DNA from: a virus
Lineage: Duplodnaviria > Caudoviricetes
IMG/VR virus record: IMGVR_UViG_3300036852_000142
Coordinates: 1 to 63,790 of that record
Length of the DNA: 63,790 bases
Reading direction: 5' to 3' (one strand)
Position 1 is the first letter of the stretch. Each line of letters starts with the position of its first letter. The notes under the pieces are model-generated. The model made no database searches. It was not told the DNA's origin and worked only from the letters and a program-made list of their open reading frames with translations. Position numbers and translations under genes: made by a program. Shown one piece after another: positions 58,878-63,790 of this stretch.

Positions 58878-59201
58878 ATGTATACAGTTCTCGGCAACGG
58901 TATGCCGCGAAAAAAGCCAGTAGGCCCGGTAGTTAATTTCCAACTCAAGCTGTACGGCGAGGAAGCAGAACGTTGGCTGAAAATCAGAGACCAAGCAAAG
59001 AAGCGGAACAACTACATAGGCGATACTGGCATCAATAGACGGTTGCTAGGACTCGATCCTGATAAGGCTGGGGAAGTCACGGAGAGAGACCGTGCGTTCT
59101 TTTTAGGCCCCCAATCAAGCAAACCAGCGGAAATGCTTGGCCGCACGCCTAGCGGCAAAGCCCATATCAAGGACGTGTCCCCCAAAGTTAGACACAGATA
59201 A
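58878..59201 (+). CDS. Putative repressor
   Basis: Divergent from the Cro-like gene, between the two operator blocks; SD GGAAAGGAG. Confidence 0.5.
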   Translation: MYTVLGNGMPRKKPVGPVVNFQLKLYGEEAERWLKIRDQAKKRNNYIGDTGINRRLLGLDPDKAGEVTERDRAFFLGPQSSKPAEMLGRTPSGKAHIKDVSPKVRHR

Positions 59202-59222
59202 GATCAAGGGTATTCCTTTTCA

Positions 59223-59489
59223 ATGGAAAGTTGTAGCGATCCGGCCTCTTACGAGGTCTCGGATACTGTTGTTTTACCAACACTTGACCTCAACGAGTTG
59301 CTTCTAGAGCATCCCGCCGCTAGCTTTGTGTTTCGCTGCGACGAAAACCTGCTCATAGTTGACCGCGCCCAAAGACCCTACGAAGGATGCCTGGTTCTCG
59401 TAAAAACGTCTCACAGCTACCTTGTCGAGCTGTATACAGGCCAACAGACGTGGGGTGTCGTAACCTACCAACTCCACAAAACTGCCTAA
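59223..59489 (+). CDS. UmuD-like (S24) protein lacking catalytic residues
   Basis: LDLNELLLEHPAASF..LLIVDR..WGVVTY, but no GDSM and no TVKR. Confidence 0.7.
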   Translation: MESCSDPASYEVSDTVVLPTLDLNELLLEHPAASFVFRCDENLLIVDRAQRPYEGCLVLVKTSHSYLVELYTGQQTWGVVTYQLHKTA

Positions 59490-59508
59490 GCTAAAACCGA
59501 AAACGAAT

Positions 59509-59562
59509 TCGGTCACATTGACGCTGGACTTGTATACAAATATAGCGTATACATCTATACGC
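59509..59562 (+). promoter_or_regulatory. Rightward promoter/operator block (inverted twin of 58790-58844)
   Basis: Identical 17-mer tcggtcacattgacgct plus four TATA boxes. Confidence 0.7.
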
Positions 59563-59594
59563 GAATCCGGCAGGGCCAAAAGGTTAGGTGTTGG

Positions 59595-59870
59595 GTGACT
59601 GAGAAACAAGAAATCAAAAAGAGCGGTTCTGAGGATTGCCCTCATTGCGGAGGCCGGCGAGAGCGCGAGCTCAGAGGCGTGCTGGTGCTCCTAATCGTCC
59701 TGCTCACCTTCGGAATCGGATACATCAAGTTATTAACTGGAGCCGCTGACGACACTCTTGTACCGCCGTGGGCTGCAGGTCTTAGCGGAGCCGCCGTGTC
59801 GATGTATTTCATGTCTCGTTCAGGAGAGCGGATGAGGGAGATGACGCGAGAGATATGTCGGAAACAATAA
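59595..59870 (+). CDS. Two-TM membrane protein, first gene of the rightward operon
   Basis: CPHC plus two hydrophobic helices. Confidence 0.55.
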   Translation: MTEKQEIKKSGSEDCPHCGGRRERELRGVLVLLIVLLTFGIGYIKLLTGAADDTLVPPWAAGLSGAAVSMYFMSRSGERMREMTREICRKQ

Positions 59871-59891
59871 AGCAGAAACAAGGGCGTCAAT

Positions 59892-60235
59892 GCTATGGCC
59901 CGGAGCTGGTTCGGTGATTCATGGTGAGGTTCGGGCCGGCAGTCTAGGCGATGTTTGGTACGTCATGGATGGTCGCGGTTAGGTTCGGTACGTCAGGCTC
60001 GGTTCGGAAGATTAGGCCGATCAAGGCAGTGTTAGGTAAGGCGGGGCAGGCGAGGAGTGGAATCCCAGCGGCGAGTCAAGGAGCGGGTAGGAATGGCACG
60101 GCAGGTGCGGCGGGGCAGGCGAGGAGAGGACACGCTTGGATCGCAGCGGTGTTGTCCGGTTTGGCAAGGTAGACAGGGAAAGGCGGCGATTGGCCTGTAA
60201 GGGCGAATCGTGGCGAGGAAAGGTAATTCAATTCA
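59892..60235 (+). repeat. Pentamer GG(Y/A)-NN array 1 (candidate guide-RNA array)
   Basis: 5-nt periodic G-rich triplets with variable dinucleotides; junctions at 59938, 59992, 60045, 60100, 60114, 60172. Confidence 0.8.
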
Positions 60236-60255
60236 ACTTTACTGAAGGAGAAAGA

Positions 60256-61035
60256 ATGGGAACGAAAGCAACAAAACAATTAGCAGATAACGCAGACGAA
60301 ATGATGGCTAACGCAAAATCGTTAGTCATTCAGCAACCAACAATTTTCAGCGTGTCATTAGAGGTTCAAGGCACGGCTGACTTAATTCAAAACCGATTCA
60401 GTCAGAAGTCGGTTGAGCAGATGCTTCGCAAACACATGGGCATCAGCGTCCAACGTGAAAGCAAGAAACCTCGCGAAGTTTTGGAAGATGCGACGGTTCT
60501 CAATACGGATGGAAAAGTTTGTATTCCGCCCACGTCATTCAAACTGGCAATGATCGCGGCGGCGAGTCAGGTTAAGAATCTCAAGAAAACACAGCTCCGC
60601 ACAGCTTTGTTTATTCAGGGCAACTCGATCCCTATCACTTACCGCGAAATGGTTCCGCGCATGGATATTACGCGCACGTCCGGTATCGGGCGCACGCCAG
60701 ATGTTCGCTTCCGTCCGTCATTCCAAGACTGGAAAGCAAGAATGACGATCCAGTTTGCCGACACGCTGTCAGTTCAAAGCGTGGTCGATTTACTCAACCG
60801 CGCGGGGCAAGTTGGGGTCGGGGAATGGCGCCCTGAGAAAAACGGCGTGTTTGGAACATTCAAAGTTTCCCGTCACGTTGATACGCCAAAAGAGATTAGC
60901 GAAATCGAAGCACAGTGCGCGGTTCCGTTAGTGCCGTTGCGAATTCCTGATTGGGCACTTGACATGGACATTAACCCCGAAGTCTTGCAGAAGATTTTCG
61001 CGGCTCAAGGCGAATCTGAAGAAGTTGCCGCGTAG
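60256..61035 (+). CDS. Stand-alone Cas7/RAMP-like RNA-binding protein (Vipr-like)
   Basis: LEVQGTADLI (beta1), IPPTSFKLAM, RFRP.F.DW, C-terminal G-loop GVGEWRPEKNGVFGTF; ATG 60256 after SD GAAGGAG. Confidence 0.8.
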   Translation: MGTKATKQLADNADEMMANAKSLVIQQPTIFSVSLEVQGTADLIQNRFSQKSVEQMLRKHMGISVQRESKKPREVLEDATVLNTDGKVCIPPTSFKLAMIAAASQVKNLKKTQLRTALFIQGNSIPITYREMVPRMDITRTSGIGRTPDVRFRPSFQDWKARMTIQFADTLSVQSVVDLLNRAGQVGVGEWRPEKNGVFGTFKVSRHVDTPKEISEIEAQCAVPLVPLRIPDWALDMDINPEVLQKIFAAQGESEEVAA

Positions 61036-61037
61036 TA

Positions 61038-61370
61038 GCAGAGGCAACGCAATTCGGGGCACGGCTTGTTGGGGCACGGATTGGCAGGCGGGGCTTATTT
61101 AGGCTTGGCATTAGAGGCACGTGAAGGCACGGTAAGGCGGGTGGGGCAATGAGTGGATGGTTAGGATTGGCTGCGTCTGGAGAGGTGAGACAAGGCAGGC
61201 GAGGAGAGGCACGACGCGGGAGCCTGGGCGTGGATTCGGAAGGGCTGGGCGAGGCAGGCAGGGACAAGCTAGGTCGGGTTTGTACGGGCGAGGAAAGTCC
61301 GGGTAAGGCAATCACGGCAGGCATGGCTAACTAGGACAGGCTTGGAAAGGACGGGCGAGGCCCGGCACAC
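61038..61370 (+). repeat. Pentamer GG(Y/A)-NN array 2 (candidate guide-RNA array)
   Basis: Same 5-nt code; GGCAGGC junctions at 61083, 61194, 61253, 61316 and a variant at 61136. Confidence 0.82.
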
Positions 61371-61393
61371 ATCAACTTTAAGGAGACAAAAAC

Positions 61394-61903
61394 ATGAGTA
61401 CAGATATAACCAAAATTGCGGGCACGGAAATTCAGTATCTGCCGACAGAAGTGAAGCGCGAAAGGAAAGCGGTGGTTGTAGATCGTGAGCTAGAACGCAT
61501 CTACAGCCAACACCAAAGAATTACCGTTGATGATGTTCTGGCGGACGCTTTGAACGATGAAAGCCCACTACATAGTTACTTTGAATGGGATGACGCAGCG
61601 GCCGGTGAAAAGTACCGGCGAGTGCAAGCCTATTCACTAATTATGAGCAGCAAGTTCATTGTTCAACTTGTACAAGATGGCAAGGTAGAACCCAGAACAA
61701 TTTCTCAGTCAGGACAAGTCCGCAAGCTCGTTAGCGCATTTCGGGGTGAAGGATTCCGAATGCGAAATGAGGCACTAGCGGACGGTGAAATGCGCCAGGC
61801 GATTATCGAGGGCAAGAAATCTGTCTTGCGCTCTTGGTGCGAGTCCACCATTGACATTCAAGAATTGCAACCATTGCGCGAGTCGATTCTGGCGAAGTTG
61901 TAA
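61394..61903 (+). CDS. Conserved partner protein of the RAMP-like gene
   Basis: SPLHSYFEWDDAAAGEKYRRVQAYSLI motif; directly after array 2. Confidence 0.65.
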   Translation: MSTDITKIAGTEIQYLPTEVKRERKAVVVDRELERIYSQHQRITVDDVLADALNDESPLHSYFEWDDAAAGEKYRRVQAYSLIMSSKFIVQLVQDGKVEPRTISQSGQVRKLVSAFRGEGFRMRNEALADGEMRQAIIEGKKSVLRSWCESTIDIQELQPLRESILAKL

Positions 61904-62205
61904 TGATCGAAATTACGCAAAACTTTCGAACTAAATATCGCTCCTCGGTTCAAAAGGCGAGGCGGGAGAAGATCCGCGTAGTTCGACTGGAAAACGATCT
62001 GTACTACGTCGCACGCCGTGCATCAGGGCATGGACGTTATCTCGTCCGTTTTTTCCATAAGAGCGATTCAGTCAGCGCGGTATGTGCCACGGTCTACAAC
62101 GAATCGTGTAAGGGATGCTGGCAAGGGCGGTGCTGTACGCATATCGCCGCAGCGGTTGAGCGCGGGATTAAGCATGGCCGAGAGAAAAGAAAGAAGGCAG
62201 CGTGA
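61903..62205 (+). CDS. SWIM-like Zn-finger protein
   Basis: YLVRF...CKGCWQGRCCTHIAAA. Confidence 0.55.
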   Translation: MIEITQNFRTKYRSSVQKARREKIRVVRLENDLYYVARRASGHGRYLVRFFHKSDSVSAVCATVYNESCKGCWQGRCCTHIAAAVERGIKHGREKRKKAA

Positions 62206-62883
62206 ACTTTCCTTTAGAACACACAAAATTACCTCTTACAGATGAGGAGAGATGGCCAGAAGAAATGAACGACGATCCTGTTAATGAAAACCAGAACCAA
62301 GGCATTCCAACGGGTAAGGTTTCCGAAAACAGTTCGGTGAGCGTTGCTCCGTCCGATCTGATTACGGTTTGCGATCACTGTCTACAGGCTTCTTGCTGGC
62401 AGGCAATCTTCTTCTGAGATGCCGAACTAGCGGCTCTTTGAAACCTGAATCCTGACTCGTACGGGCTTAGCCTGTCGGGAGCGCAAGCGGCGCGGAACTC
62501 GATCATAAACCGGGACGCTGGGGCGATTGAGAATGACCACTTAATGCGCGTTCGGGATTCAGGTTTGAGAGAAGCCTGATACCAGCGAACAAAAGGGATA
62601 ACAGCCGCACGTTAGAAGAATGTAGTTTGCCGGAATTAAAAGAAAGAGGATTTGAAATGTTAGAACTTGAACTTCCAGAACTAATCGAAGTCGTTGAGGA
62701 CTGCTCTGTTTGTGATGGGAAGGGTGAAGTCGTTGATGATTGGCCGCGCCGAGCGAATCGCCCAGGTGAAGAGCAGATGATGAATTGTGCCAACTGCGGC
62801 GGAACCGGTGAGCTAGTAAAAGAAATTTGTCATATATGCCAGAAGTCAGAATTCGAGTGCAAGTGTTTTGATGGAGGAGCCAA

Positions 62884-63663: not shown

Positions 63664-63790
63664 GCCGAAACCGAAATGATCGCCAAGTTGCTCCGTGAAC
63701 AGGAGCGCGATGGTTGGCGAGTCGAAACCAATATCGAGAATGTGCCGAGCGAAACAGGTCAGTACGCCTTGCGAGACGGTCTCGCTAGTA
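63664..63790. repeat. Terminal direct repeat, copy 2
   Basis: Identical to 1-127. Confidence 0.95.

Follow-up and report, generated by a model that had tools for sequence, protein, structure and literature searches.

What does a tract of short G-rich repeats encode in an intergenic region of a soil phage genome, and why is its rhythm of five nucleotides interrupted at intervals by units of only four? An earlier note on this DNA had resolved the tract at positions 59938 to 60178 into modules of about ten pentamers, and had proposed that the four-nucleotide junctions between them mark guide boundaries or processing sites and that the modules are shuffled by recombination at these junctions. The frame for this question is VIPR, a CRISPR-related DNA silencer that was first described in 2026 (10.64898/2026.04.26.720920, also PMC13142463) and that is treated in two further preprints (10.64898/2026.04.26.720927, on structures, and 10.64898/2026.10.15.759431). 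According to the portions of the VIPR preprints that describe the repeat code, each YNNGG repeat is held at its GGY by a Vipr protomer, which presents the NN bases for pairing with DNA having one skipped base after each pair, and guides comprise 9-16 repeats; filament assembly on GGY, a gapped R-loop and transcriptional silencing are described there as established for other VIPR loci. Staggered vrRNA arrays have already been published in the legend of fig. S18 of 10.64898/2026.04.26.720920, a paper in which this layout, unlike two other layouts, is presented without confirmation by small-RNA sequencing. Here, repeat analysis, homology searches, structure modelling and searches for natural targets were used for the analysis of the phage locus. 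The tract at 59938-60178 is very probably the core of one of two vrRNA (guide RNA) arrays of a phage VIPR system, and the locus belongs to the already described staggered-array kind. As a VIPR locus it is known from sequence alone, namely by the family of its protein, the code of its arrays, the limits of complementarity and two classes of targets.

Sequences and searches

The window, that is the whole stretch of DNA analysed, comprises 63,790 bp and represents the complete genome of a phage from a soil metagenome, with direct terminal repeats of 127 bp (1-127 and 63664-63790). The identical phage was found in two soil DNA sequencing runs, which may be its source; none of the runs listed as carrying it is recorded as RNA. 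Related loci were fetched from IMG/VR, 78 of them with the 259-aa protein encoded at 60256-61035 and 11 with the protein of the neighbouring ORF at 61394-61903. The fetched loci together with the window yielded the set for the junction statistics, which comprised 56 non-redundant arrays (16.5 kb). For target searches, guides were read as NN dinucleotides joined by single wildcards, following the published rule of reading two bases and skipping one. All features of the locus given below lie on the + strand.

General searches around the locus were negative within their respective scope. No match was obtained by blastn of 59400-62400 against GenBank phages or with Rfam at E values up to 1, Pfam returned nothing relevant for 15 neighbouring ORFs, and a scan of 59200-62300 for sigma-70 promoters gave no site. 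Two terminator-like sites were detected in the scan of 59200-62300, neither of them at the arrays.

In two runs of another study, contigs match only positions 59606-59889, a small upstream ORF, at 95-99% or better. One such contig turns to unrelated sequence from 59889, exactly where array 1 begins, and this divergence may indicate that the VIPR module was inserted here, as compared with a related phage.

Repeat structure of the two arrays

On the + strand of 59898-60232, GG recurs every five bases with the phase slipping by -1 at intervals, and the signal of G peaks at a period of 4.9 nt and not at 5.0 nt. The G-indicator power near this period is 6.3 for 59938-60178 and 7.4 for 59898-60232, compared with maxima of 2.9 and 2.5, respectively, in 1000 shuffles each, none of which reached the observed value. 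The array coordinates given by the earlier note thus describe a real array, but one that is wider than 59938-60178 and that is accompanied by a second: array 1 covers 59898-60232, upstream of the vipr gene, with about 67 GGY-NN units and -1 register shifts, and array 2, of the same GGY-NN repeat type, covers 61038-61384 on the 3' side of vipr. The G periodicity of array 2 was likewise reached by 0 of 1000 shuffles. Both arrays are degenerate, with about 70% of the units beginning with GG, and neither was reported by Tandem Repeats Finder. Over the 120 five-nucleotide units of the window, the entropy is 1.0, 1.15 and 1.8 bits at the three GGY positions and 1.98 and 1.9 bits at the two NN positions. 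Intergenic GGY-NN (YNNGG) tandem repeats with fixed GGY and variable NN, as they characterise VIPR loci, were therefore found beside vipr in the form of two flanking arrays.

All six junction strings listed earlier for array 1 were recovered at 59938, 59992, 60045, 60100, 60114 and 60172, with spacings of 54, 53, 55, 14 and 58. The list proved incomplete, since the unit parse contains an extra 4-nt unit near 60006 and a 6-nt unit at 60059; these additional register shifts are without junction-like sequence. The first junction, GGCA at 59938-59941, is followed by a guide whose ten 5-nt units occupy 59942-59991, as had been stated before, and this guide is closed by the degenerate 4-nt unit GTCA at 59992-59995. 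Further GGCA junctions are located at 60045-60048, 60100-60103 and 60114-60117. The latter two enclose a stub of two units (60104-60113), and the last of them is followed by a guide-like module of ten units at 60118-60167. The final register shift of array 1 falls within 60168-60175, where its placement is ambiguous between GGTA at 60168 and GACA at 60172. The GGCA family consensus is accordingly present in four of the six junctions only, the others being GTCA and GGTA/GACA. The hexamer GGCAGG occurs eight times in the 682 nt of the two window arrays and again eight times on the + strand outside them (63,108 nt).

The 18-mer noted earlier at 60040 and 60109 is also present, as eight consecutive 11-mers repeat at an offset of +69. 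Its first copy (60040-60057) contains the junction at 60045-60048 and its second copy (60109-60126) the junction at 60114-60117. The repeated sequence takes in the closing unit of a module, the junction behind it and the two opening units of the module that follows. A third copy of a 16-nt part of the 18-mer is found at 61194, in array 2.

The Vipr protein and a candidate accessory gene

The ORF of 259 aa at 60256-61035, located between the two arrays, belongs to phrog_4652, a family of unknown function in PHROGs, and gave no hit in Pfam. A profile built from the window protein and 47 relatives matched one solved structure, PDB 36pp_D, annotated as 'SUSP1 Vipr protein', with an E value of 2.6e-15. 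The window protein alone matched SUSP1 Vipr at an E value of 2.6e-4, with its GVGEWRP aligned with the GVGDWRP of the SUSP1 G-loop. An AlphaFold model of the window protein (pLDDT 88.8) found its best Foldseek matches among the Cas7-family subunits Csm3/Cmr4. Profile, single sequence and model agree on a stand-alone RAMP homolog of the SUSP1 Vipr family, and the ORF was assigned as the vipr gene, encoding a Cas7-like RAMP.

The residues by which SUSP1 Vipr holds GGY are given in the structural preprint as H17, R138, D177, W178 and R179 (10.64898/2026.04.26.720927). R153, W191 and R192 of the window protein align to R138, W178 and R179 of SUSP1 and are invariant in 48 sequences. The position of D177 is taken conservatively by E190 in the window protein and by E in all 48 aligned family members, while the position of H17, which contacts G1, carries N in the window protein and H in the family consensus.

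Downstream of array 2, the ORF at 61394-61903 encodes a protein of 169 aa (phrog_15946), a homolog of which adjoins vipr in another fetched locus (L002). A fold search with this protein gave no confident match, the best being RctB winged-helix domains with an E value of 0.04. From its neighbourhood the ORF is a candidate accessory (vap) gene of vipr.

Punctuation of related arrays

A same-strand GG array of at least 80 nt was present in 55 of the 78 loci fetched with the Vipr protein and in 8 of the 11 fetched with the neighbouring protein, and all 12 arrays examined had their spectral peak at 4.84-4.94 nt. Within the 56 arrays, the 5-nt step was counted 2979 times and the 4-nt step 293 times, next to four steps of 6 nt, five of 3 nt and one of 7 nt. 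Of the 293 units of 4 nt, 199 read GGCA; C occupies position 3 in 90% of 4-nt units versus 63% of ordinary units, and A occupies position 4 in 77% versus 33%. The base 5' of a 4-nt unit was never parsed as G, a result to which the parsing itself contributes in part. Successive 4-nt units most often lie 54 nt (40 cases) or 49 nt (38 cases) apart. A secondary interval of 9 nt (24 cases) corresponds to junctions separated by a single unit, an interval of 14 nt was counted 7 times, and the unit that follows a junction has a mild sequence preference.

These statistics bear on the possibility that the 4-nt units arose by accident, through loss of single bases from a pentamer tract in decay, and play no role as boundaries. 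Such decay would fit with the approximately 30% of window units that lack GG and with the shifts near 60006 (4 nt) and at 60059 (6 nt), where nothing resembling a junction is seen. It is nevertheless highly improbable, given that the shifts run almost entirely in one direction, that the short units have a consensus of their own with enriched C and A, that they keep preferred spacings, and that complementarity to targets (see below) ends at them. The bias in direction, the own consensus and the spacing together indicate that the junction is sequence-defined, directional and quasi-regular and not a product of random decay.

The same set of arrays was used to weigh the proposal that modules have been shuffled by recombination at the junctions, with the stub at 60104-60113 left behind as a scar. 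Recombination of this kind would be compatible with a punctuated guide array, and the exact 18-mer, which spans a junction at 60040 and again at 60109 and of which 16 nt return at 61194, speaks in its favour; with roughly seven free positions, by a rough estimate, the identity of the two copies is improbable by chance, so that duplication or gene conversion across a junction is plausible. The stub, on the other hand, does not bear out the proposal. Stubs between paired junctions are common in relatives, where they account for the 9-nt and 14-nt intervals, and in one locus (L006) a junction doublet stands between nearly all guides, with 9 nt alternating with 44-49 nt throughout. Stubs being normal among related arrays, the one at 60104-60113 is in itself no evidence of a recombination scar. 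The preference in the unit after the junction also counts against shuffling, which is on balance rather unlikely; between the two DNA runs that carry the phage no variants were found, their copies being identical.

Two further observations concern the diversity of the arrays. One locus (L065, 4160-5691) has a single array that runs without interruption for about 1.5 kb; its period is 4.9 nt, and it contains 36 junction units and hence about 35 guides. In seven vipr loci (L007-L010, L039, L044 and L077), CC-periodic tracts occur in addition or instead, i.e. arrays on the strand opposite to vipr.

Natural targets of the guide at 59942-59991

The search with the NN code of 59942-59991 that had been suggested by the earlier note was performed and returned 67 natural sites at which all 20 read bases match, 49 of them in metagenome contigs and 18 in bacterial genome contigs; in viral contigs the pattern gave no hit. 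All 67 sites lie in one gene family, at one motif and on the antisense strand, in the codons for the peptide VDYAQIVKSY (one site has H for Q). They represent 51 distinct 29-mers, and the skipped base is the wobble position of the codons. The target ORFs scanned (6 of 6) matched Pfam DDE_Tnp_IS1 above the cut-off and NCBIfam IS1 below it; because of the latter, the target gene is named IS1-like and not IS1.

The 18 genome hits are from metagenome-assembled genomes (MAGs) labelled as Pyrinomonadaceae and other Acidobacteriota, Dehalococcoidia, Myxococcales/Kofleriaceae, Thermodesulfobacteriota/Desulfomonilia and similar. Three MAGs contain two copies of the transposase each, and the copies of a pair, compared within these three MAGs, are only about 79-82% identical. 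The DNA common to target loci comprises roughly 1 to 2 kb around the transposase gene. Among 36 ORFs neighbouring the transposase, few phage-type matches were obtained (a terminase fragment, a methyltransferase and a regulator), and the phage's own genome contains no homolog of the target transposase. We tentatively read the guide at 59942-59991 as a VIPR guide that could be aimed at a transposon gene, an IS1-like DDE transposase, and not at a phage or satellite, and we give this reading somewhat less than an even chance.

The extent of the match is informative about the junctions. It runs into neither the GGCA at 59938 nor the GTCA at 59992, so that 59942-59991 behaves as one complete guide with its match confined between two junctions, in support of the earlier proposal that junctions are guide boundaries. 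The complementarity also stops at a junction at the 3' end of the guide at 61038-61082 and at both ends of a guide of another locus (L040), both described below. Since natural target matches stop exactly there, the one-base-short units are probably true guide boundaries. Tailless adjacent guides offset by one base, as in the staggered arrangement, are accordingly present here in the form of -1 shifts at GGCA-type units. Pairing of the CA of GGCA with the target was also considered and was rejected: it is matched at none of the 67 transposase sites and half-matched in L040.

Guides directed against other VIPR systems

Array 2 begins with a guide of nine units at 61038-61082, which is directed against G-loop codons of rival vipr genes, and the match ends at the GGCA junction at 61083-61086. 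All 18 read bases of this guide match in 21 of the 89 fetched loci, in every case inside vipr at EKNGTFGTF, and four further loci match at 17 of 18. The phage's own vipr, which encodes EKNGVFGTF, reaches 16 of 18 and differs from the rival vipr at the target by one codon, V versus T. The guide therefore appears to aim at a rival VIPR and to spare its own by one codon. In controls, other skip rules and shuffled orders of the NN dinucleotides each gave 13-14 of 16. A scan of IMG/VR with the pattern returned 22 hits, 21 at the vipr motif and one elsewhere, the latter being the chance level expected for 18 fixed bases. Other VIPR systems are a target class that is named in 10.64898/2026.04.26.720920. 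Taken together, natural targets that obey a 1-nt skip at the wobble position were found for two guides of the locus, at the 67 transposase sites and in the 21 vipr loci.

The rival vipr target is also matched, at W and R codons, by two units that lie inside vipr close to its 3' end (61023-61032), and within 61023-61037 only the unit over the vipr stop codon mismatches it. The anti-vipr guide may thus start inside the vipr ORF, which would give 22 of 24 read bases over 12 units.

The guide of L040 matches another vipr motif, EDMVRVGM, over exactly eight units, which lie between two GGCA units. Guides of L086 and L087 match each other's locus, with 17 of 18 and 16 of 16 read bases, and the L086 guide is flanked by two GGCA units; the scores are near chance for an all-against-all search, and reciprocal targeting is therefore regarded as a lead only. 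The all-against-all search of guides gave 141 hits, of which 51 originate from the anti-vipr guide of L040 and 45 are low-complexity hits from L039. This leaves 45 hits, a number near the approximately 41 estimated by chance, and these were not used.

For the remainder of the two window arrays the yield was small. A candidate guide at 61106-61155 agrees at 18 of 20 read bases with an ORF that belongs to the same rival lineage and is of unknown function. The module at 60118-60167 yielded no target, with no hits in viral contigs (searched with nine units) or genome contigs (ten units), and the module at 60172-60216 gave no hit in viral contigs. When all registers of both arrays were compared with the transposase loci, the loci fetched from IMG/VR and the entire records of five rival phages, nothing exceeded chance or shuffled controls apart from the guides at 59942-59991 and 61038-61082 and the candidate at 61106-61155.

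Array ends and the downstream genes

The 9-mer TCAACTTTA is found at both array ends, a few bases 5' of the ribosome-binding site of the next gene. In array 1 it occupies 60233-60241, directly ahead of the vipr ribosome-binding site, and in array 2 it occupies 61372-61380. It occurs three times in the genome, a number reached by 0 of 100 shuffles, and it could serve both arrays as a 3' end signal or else belong to the region of translation start.

The TRAP binding site in leader RNA consists of 11 triplets. An RNA of this type, wrapped by a ring- or filament-forming protein and controlling translation downstream, would offer another explanation of a G-periodic tract, one in which there is no guide array at all: the modules of about 54 nt resemble the 11-triplet site, and both arrays, each with TCAACTTTA, stop about 25 nt before a strong ribosome-binding site. 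A leader of this kind was dropped as extremely improbable, because the neighbouring protein is a Vipr homolog and because the NN positions, read in another register (3 nt versus 5 nt), give exact natural targets, which is not expected of a purely structural leader.

Proposed mode of action

For the locus as a staggered guide array, the following course of events is proposed. The + strand would be transcribed, and one Vipr protomer would hold each GGY triplet and present the two following bases. Pairing of these NN bases with target DNA, with one base skipped after every two, would silence transcription. Tailless guides of about 8 to 11 units each would succeed one another in the staggered layout, each guide ending with a unit that has one variable base, with the consensus GGC-A, after which the register of the next guide is shifted by -1. 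Such a register break would end one Vipr filament and start the next, and the exposed link between the filaments would be the site where the transcript is cut or trimmed. The GGCA unit may be a sequence-defined stop and start signal for Vipr filaments.

With respect to the transposase, the phage may silence host transposition and thereby protect its own genome from insertion sequences during replication. It may instead immobilise a parasite that is moved by this transposase, a possibility modelled on the published case in which the excision recombinase of a satellite is silenced.

Comparison with known systems

As in the staggered VIPR loci described in 10.64898/2026.04.26.720920, a vipr RAMP gene is flanked by long intergenic GGY-NN tracts, in which guides abut without tails and neighbours are offset by one base. 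Also in agreement with the descriptions in the VIPR preprints, the targets follow the rule of skipping one base, which falls on the wobble position of the codon, and one guide is directed at other VIPR systems. The locus differs from the main texts of two of the VIPR preprints in its IS1-like transposase target, which is unmentioned there: the word 'transposase' is used a single time, in a sentence on another matter, by the main text of 10.64898/2026.04.26.720920 and is absent from that of 10.64898/2026.10.15.759431, the published target tables being located in supplements.

Escherichia phage SUSP1 carries a type II VIPR, represented by PDB 36pp (10.64898/2026.04.26.720920, 10.64898/2026.04.26.720927). 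The locus shares with SUSP1 a homologous Vipr with the W-R pair of the G-loop and the thumb arginine, the GGY/NN code and the placement of arrays to either side of vipr. In contrast to SUSP1, whose vrRNAs are presented in the preprints as discrete, about 100 nt long and provided with an invariant 3' pseudoknot tail, the guides here are tailless and punctuated by 4-nt units. Moreover, the acid of the G-loop is E here versus D, N stands in place of H17, and Vipr has 259 aa here versus 202 aa in SUSP1.

The Cas7 backbone of class 1 CRISPR systems (Csm3/Cmr4) resembles Vipr of the window in its fold (Foldseek E values of 4e-7 to 1e-4, probability 1.0) and in the use of one protomer per fixed guide step. 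Unlike class 1 CRISPR systems, the locus has neither CRISPR repeats nor other cas genes, and the sequence identity is about 10%. The step here is 5 nt with three bases hidden, as opposed to 6 nt with one base flipped in Csm3/Cmr4.

Conclusions

The locus is a complete and well-delimited example of the staggered array, which is the least characterised VIPR layout, and the published VIPR mechanism is unchanged by these findings. The bias of 293 to 4 in step lengths, the GGCA consensus, the spacing of 49 and 54 nt and the paired junctions are figures that go beyond the main texts on VIPR. The guide at 61038-61082 exemplifies how a phage may spare its own vipr by a single codon, V versus T, and the transposase family may be a new class of natural VIPR target.
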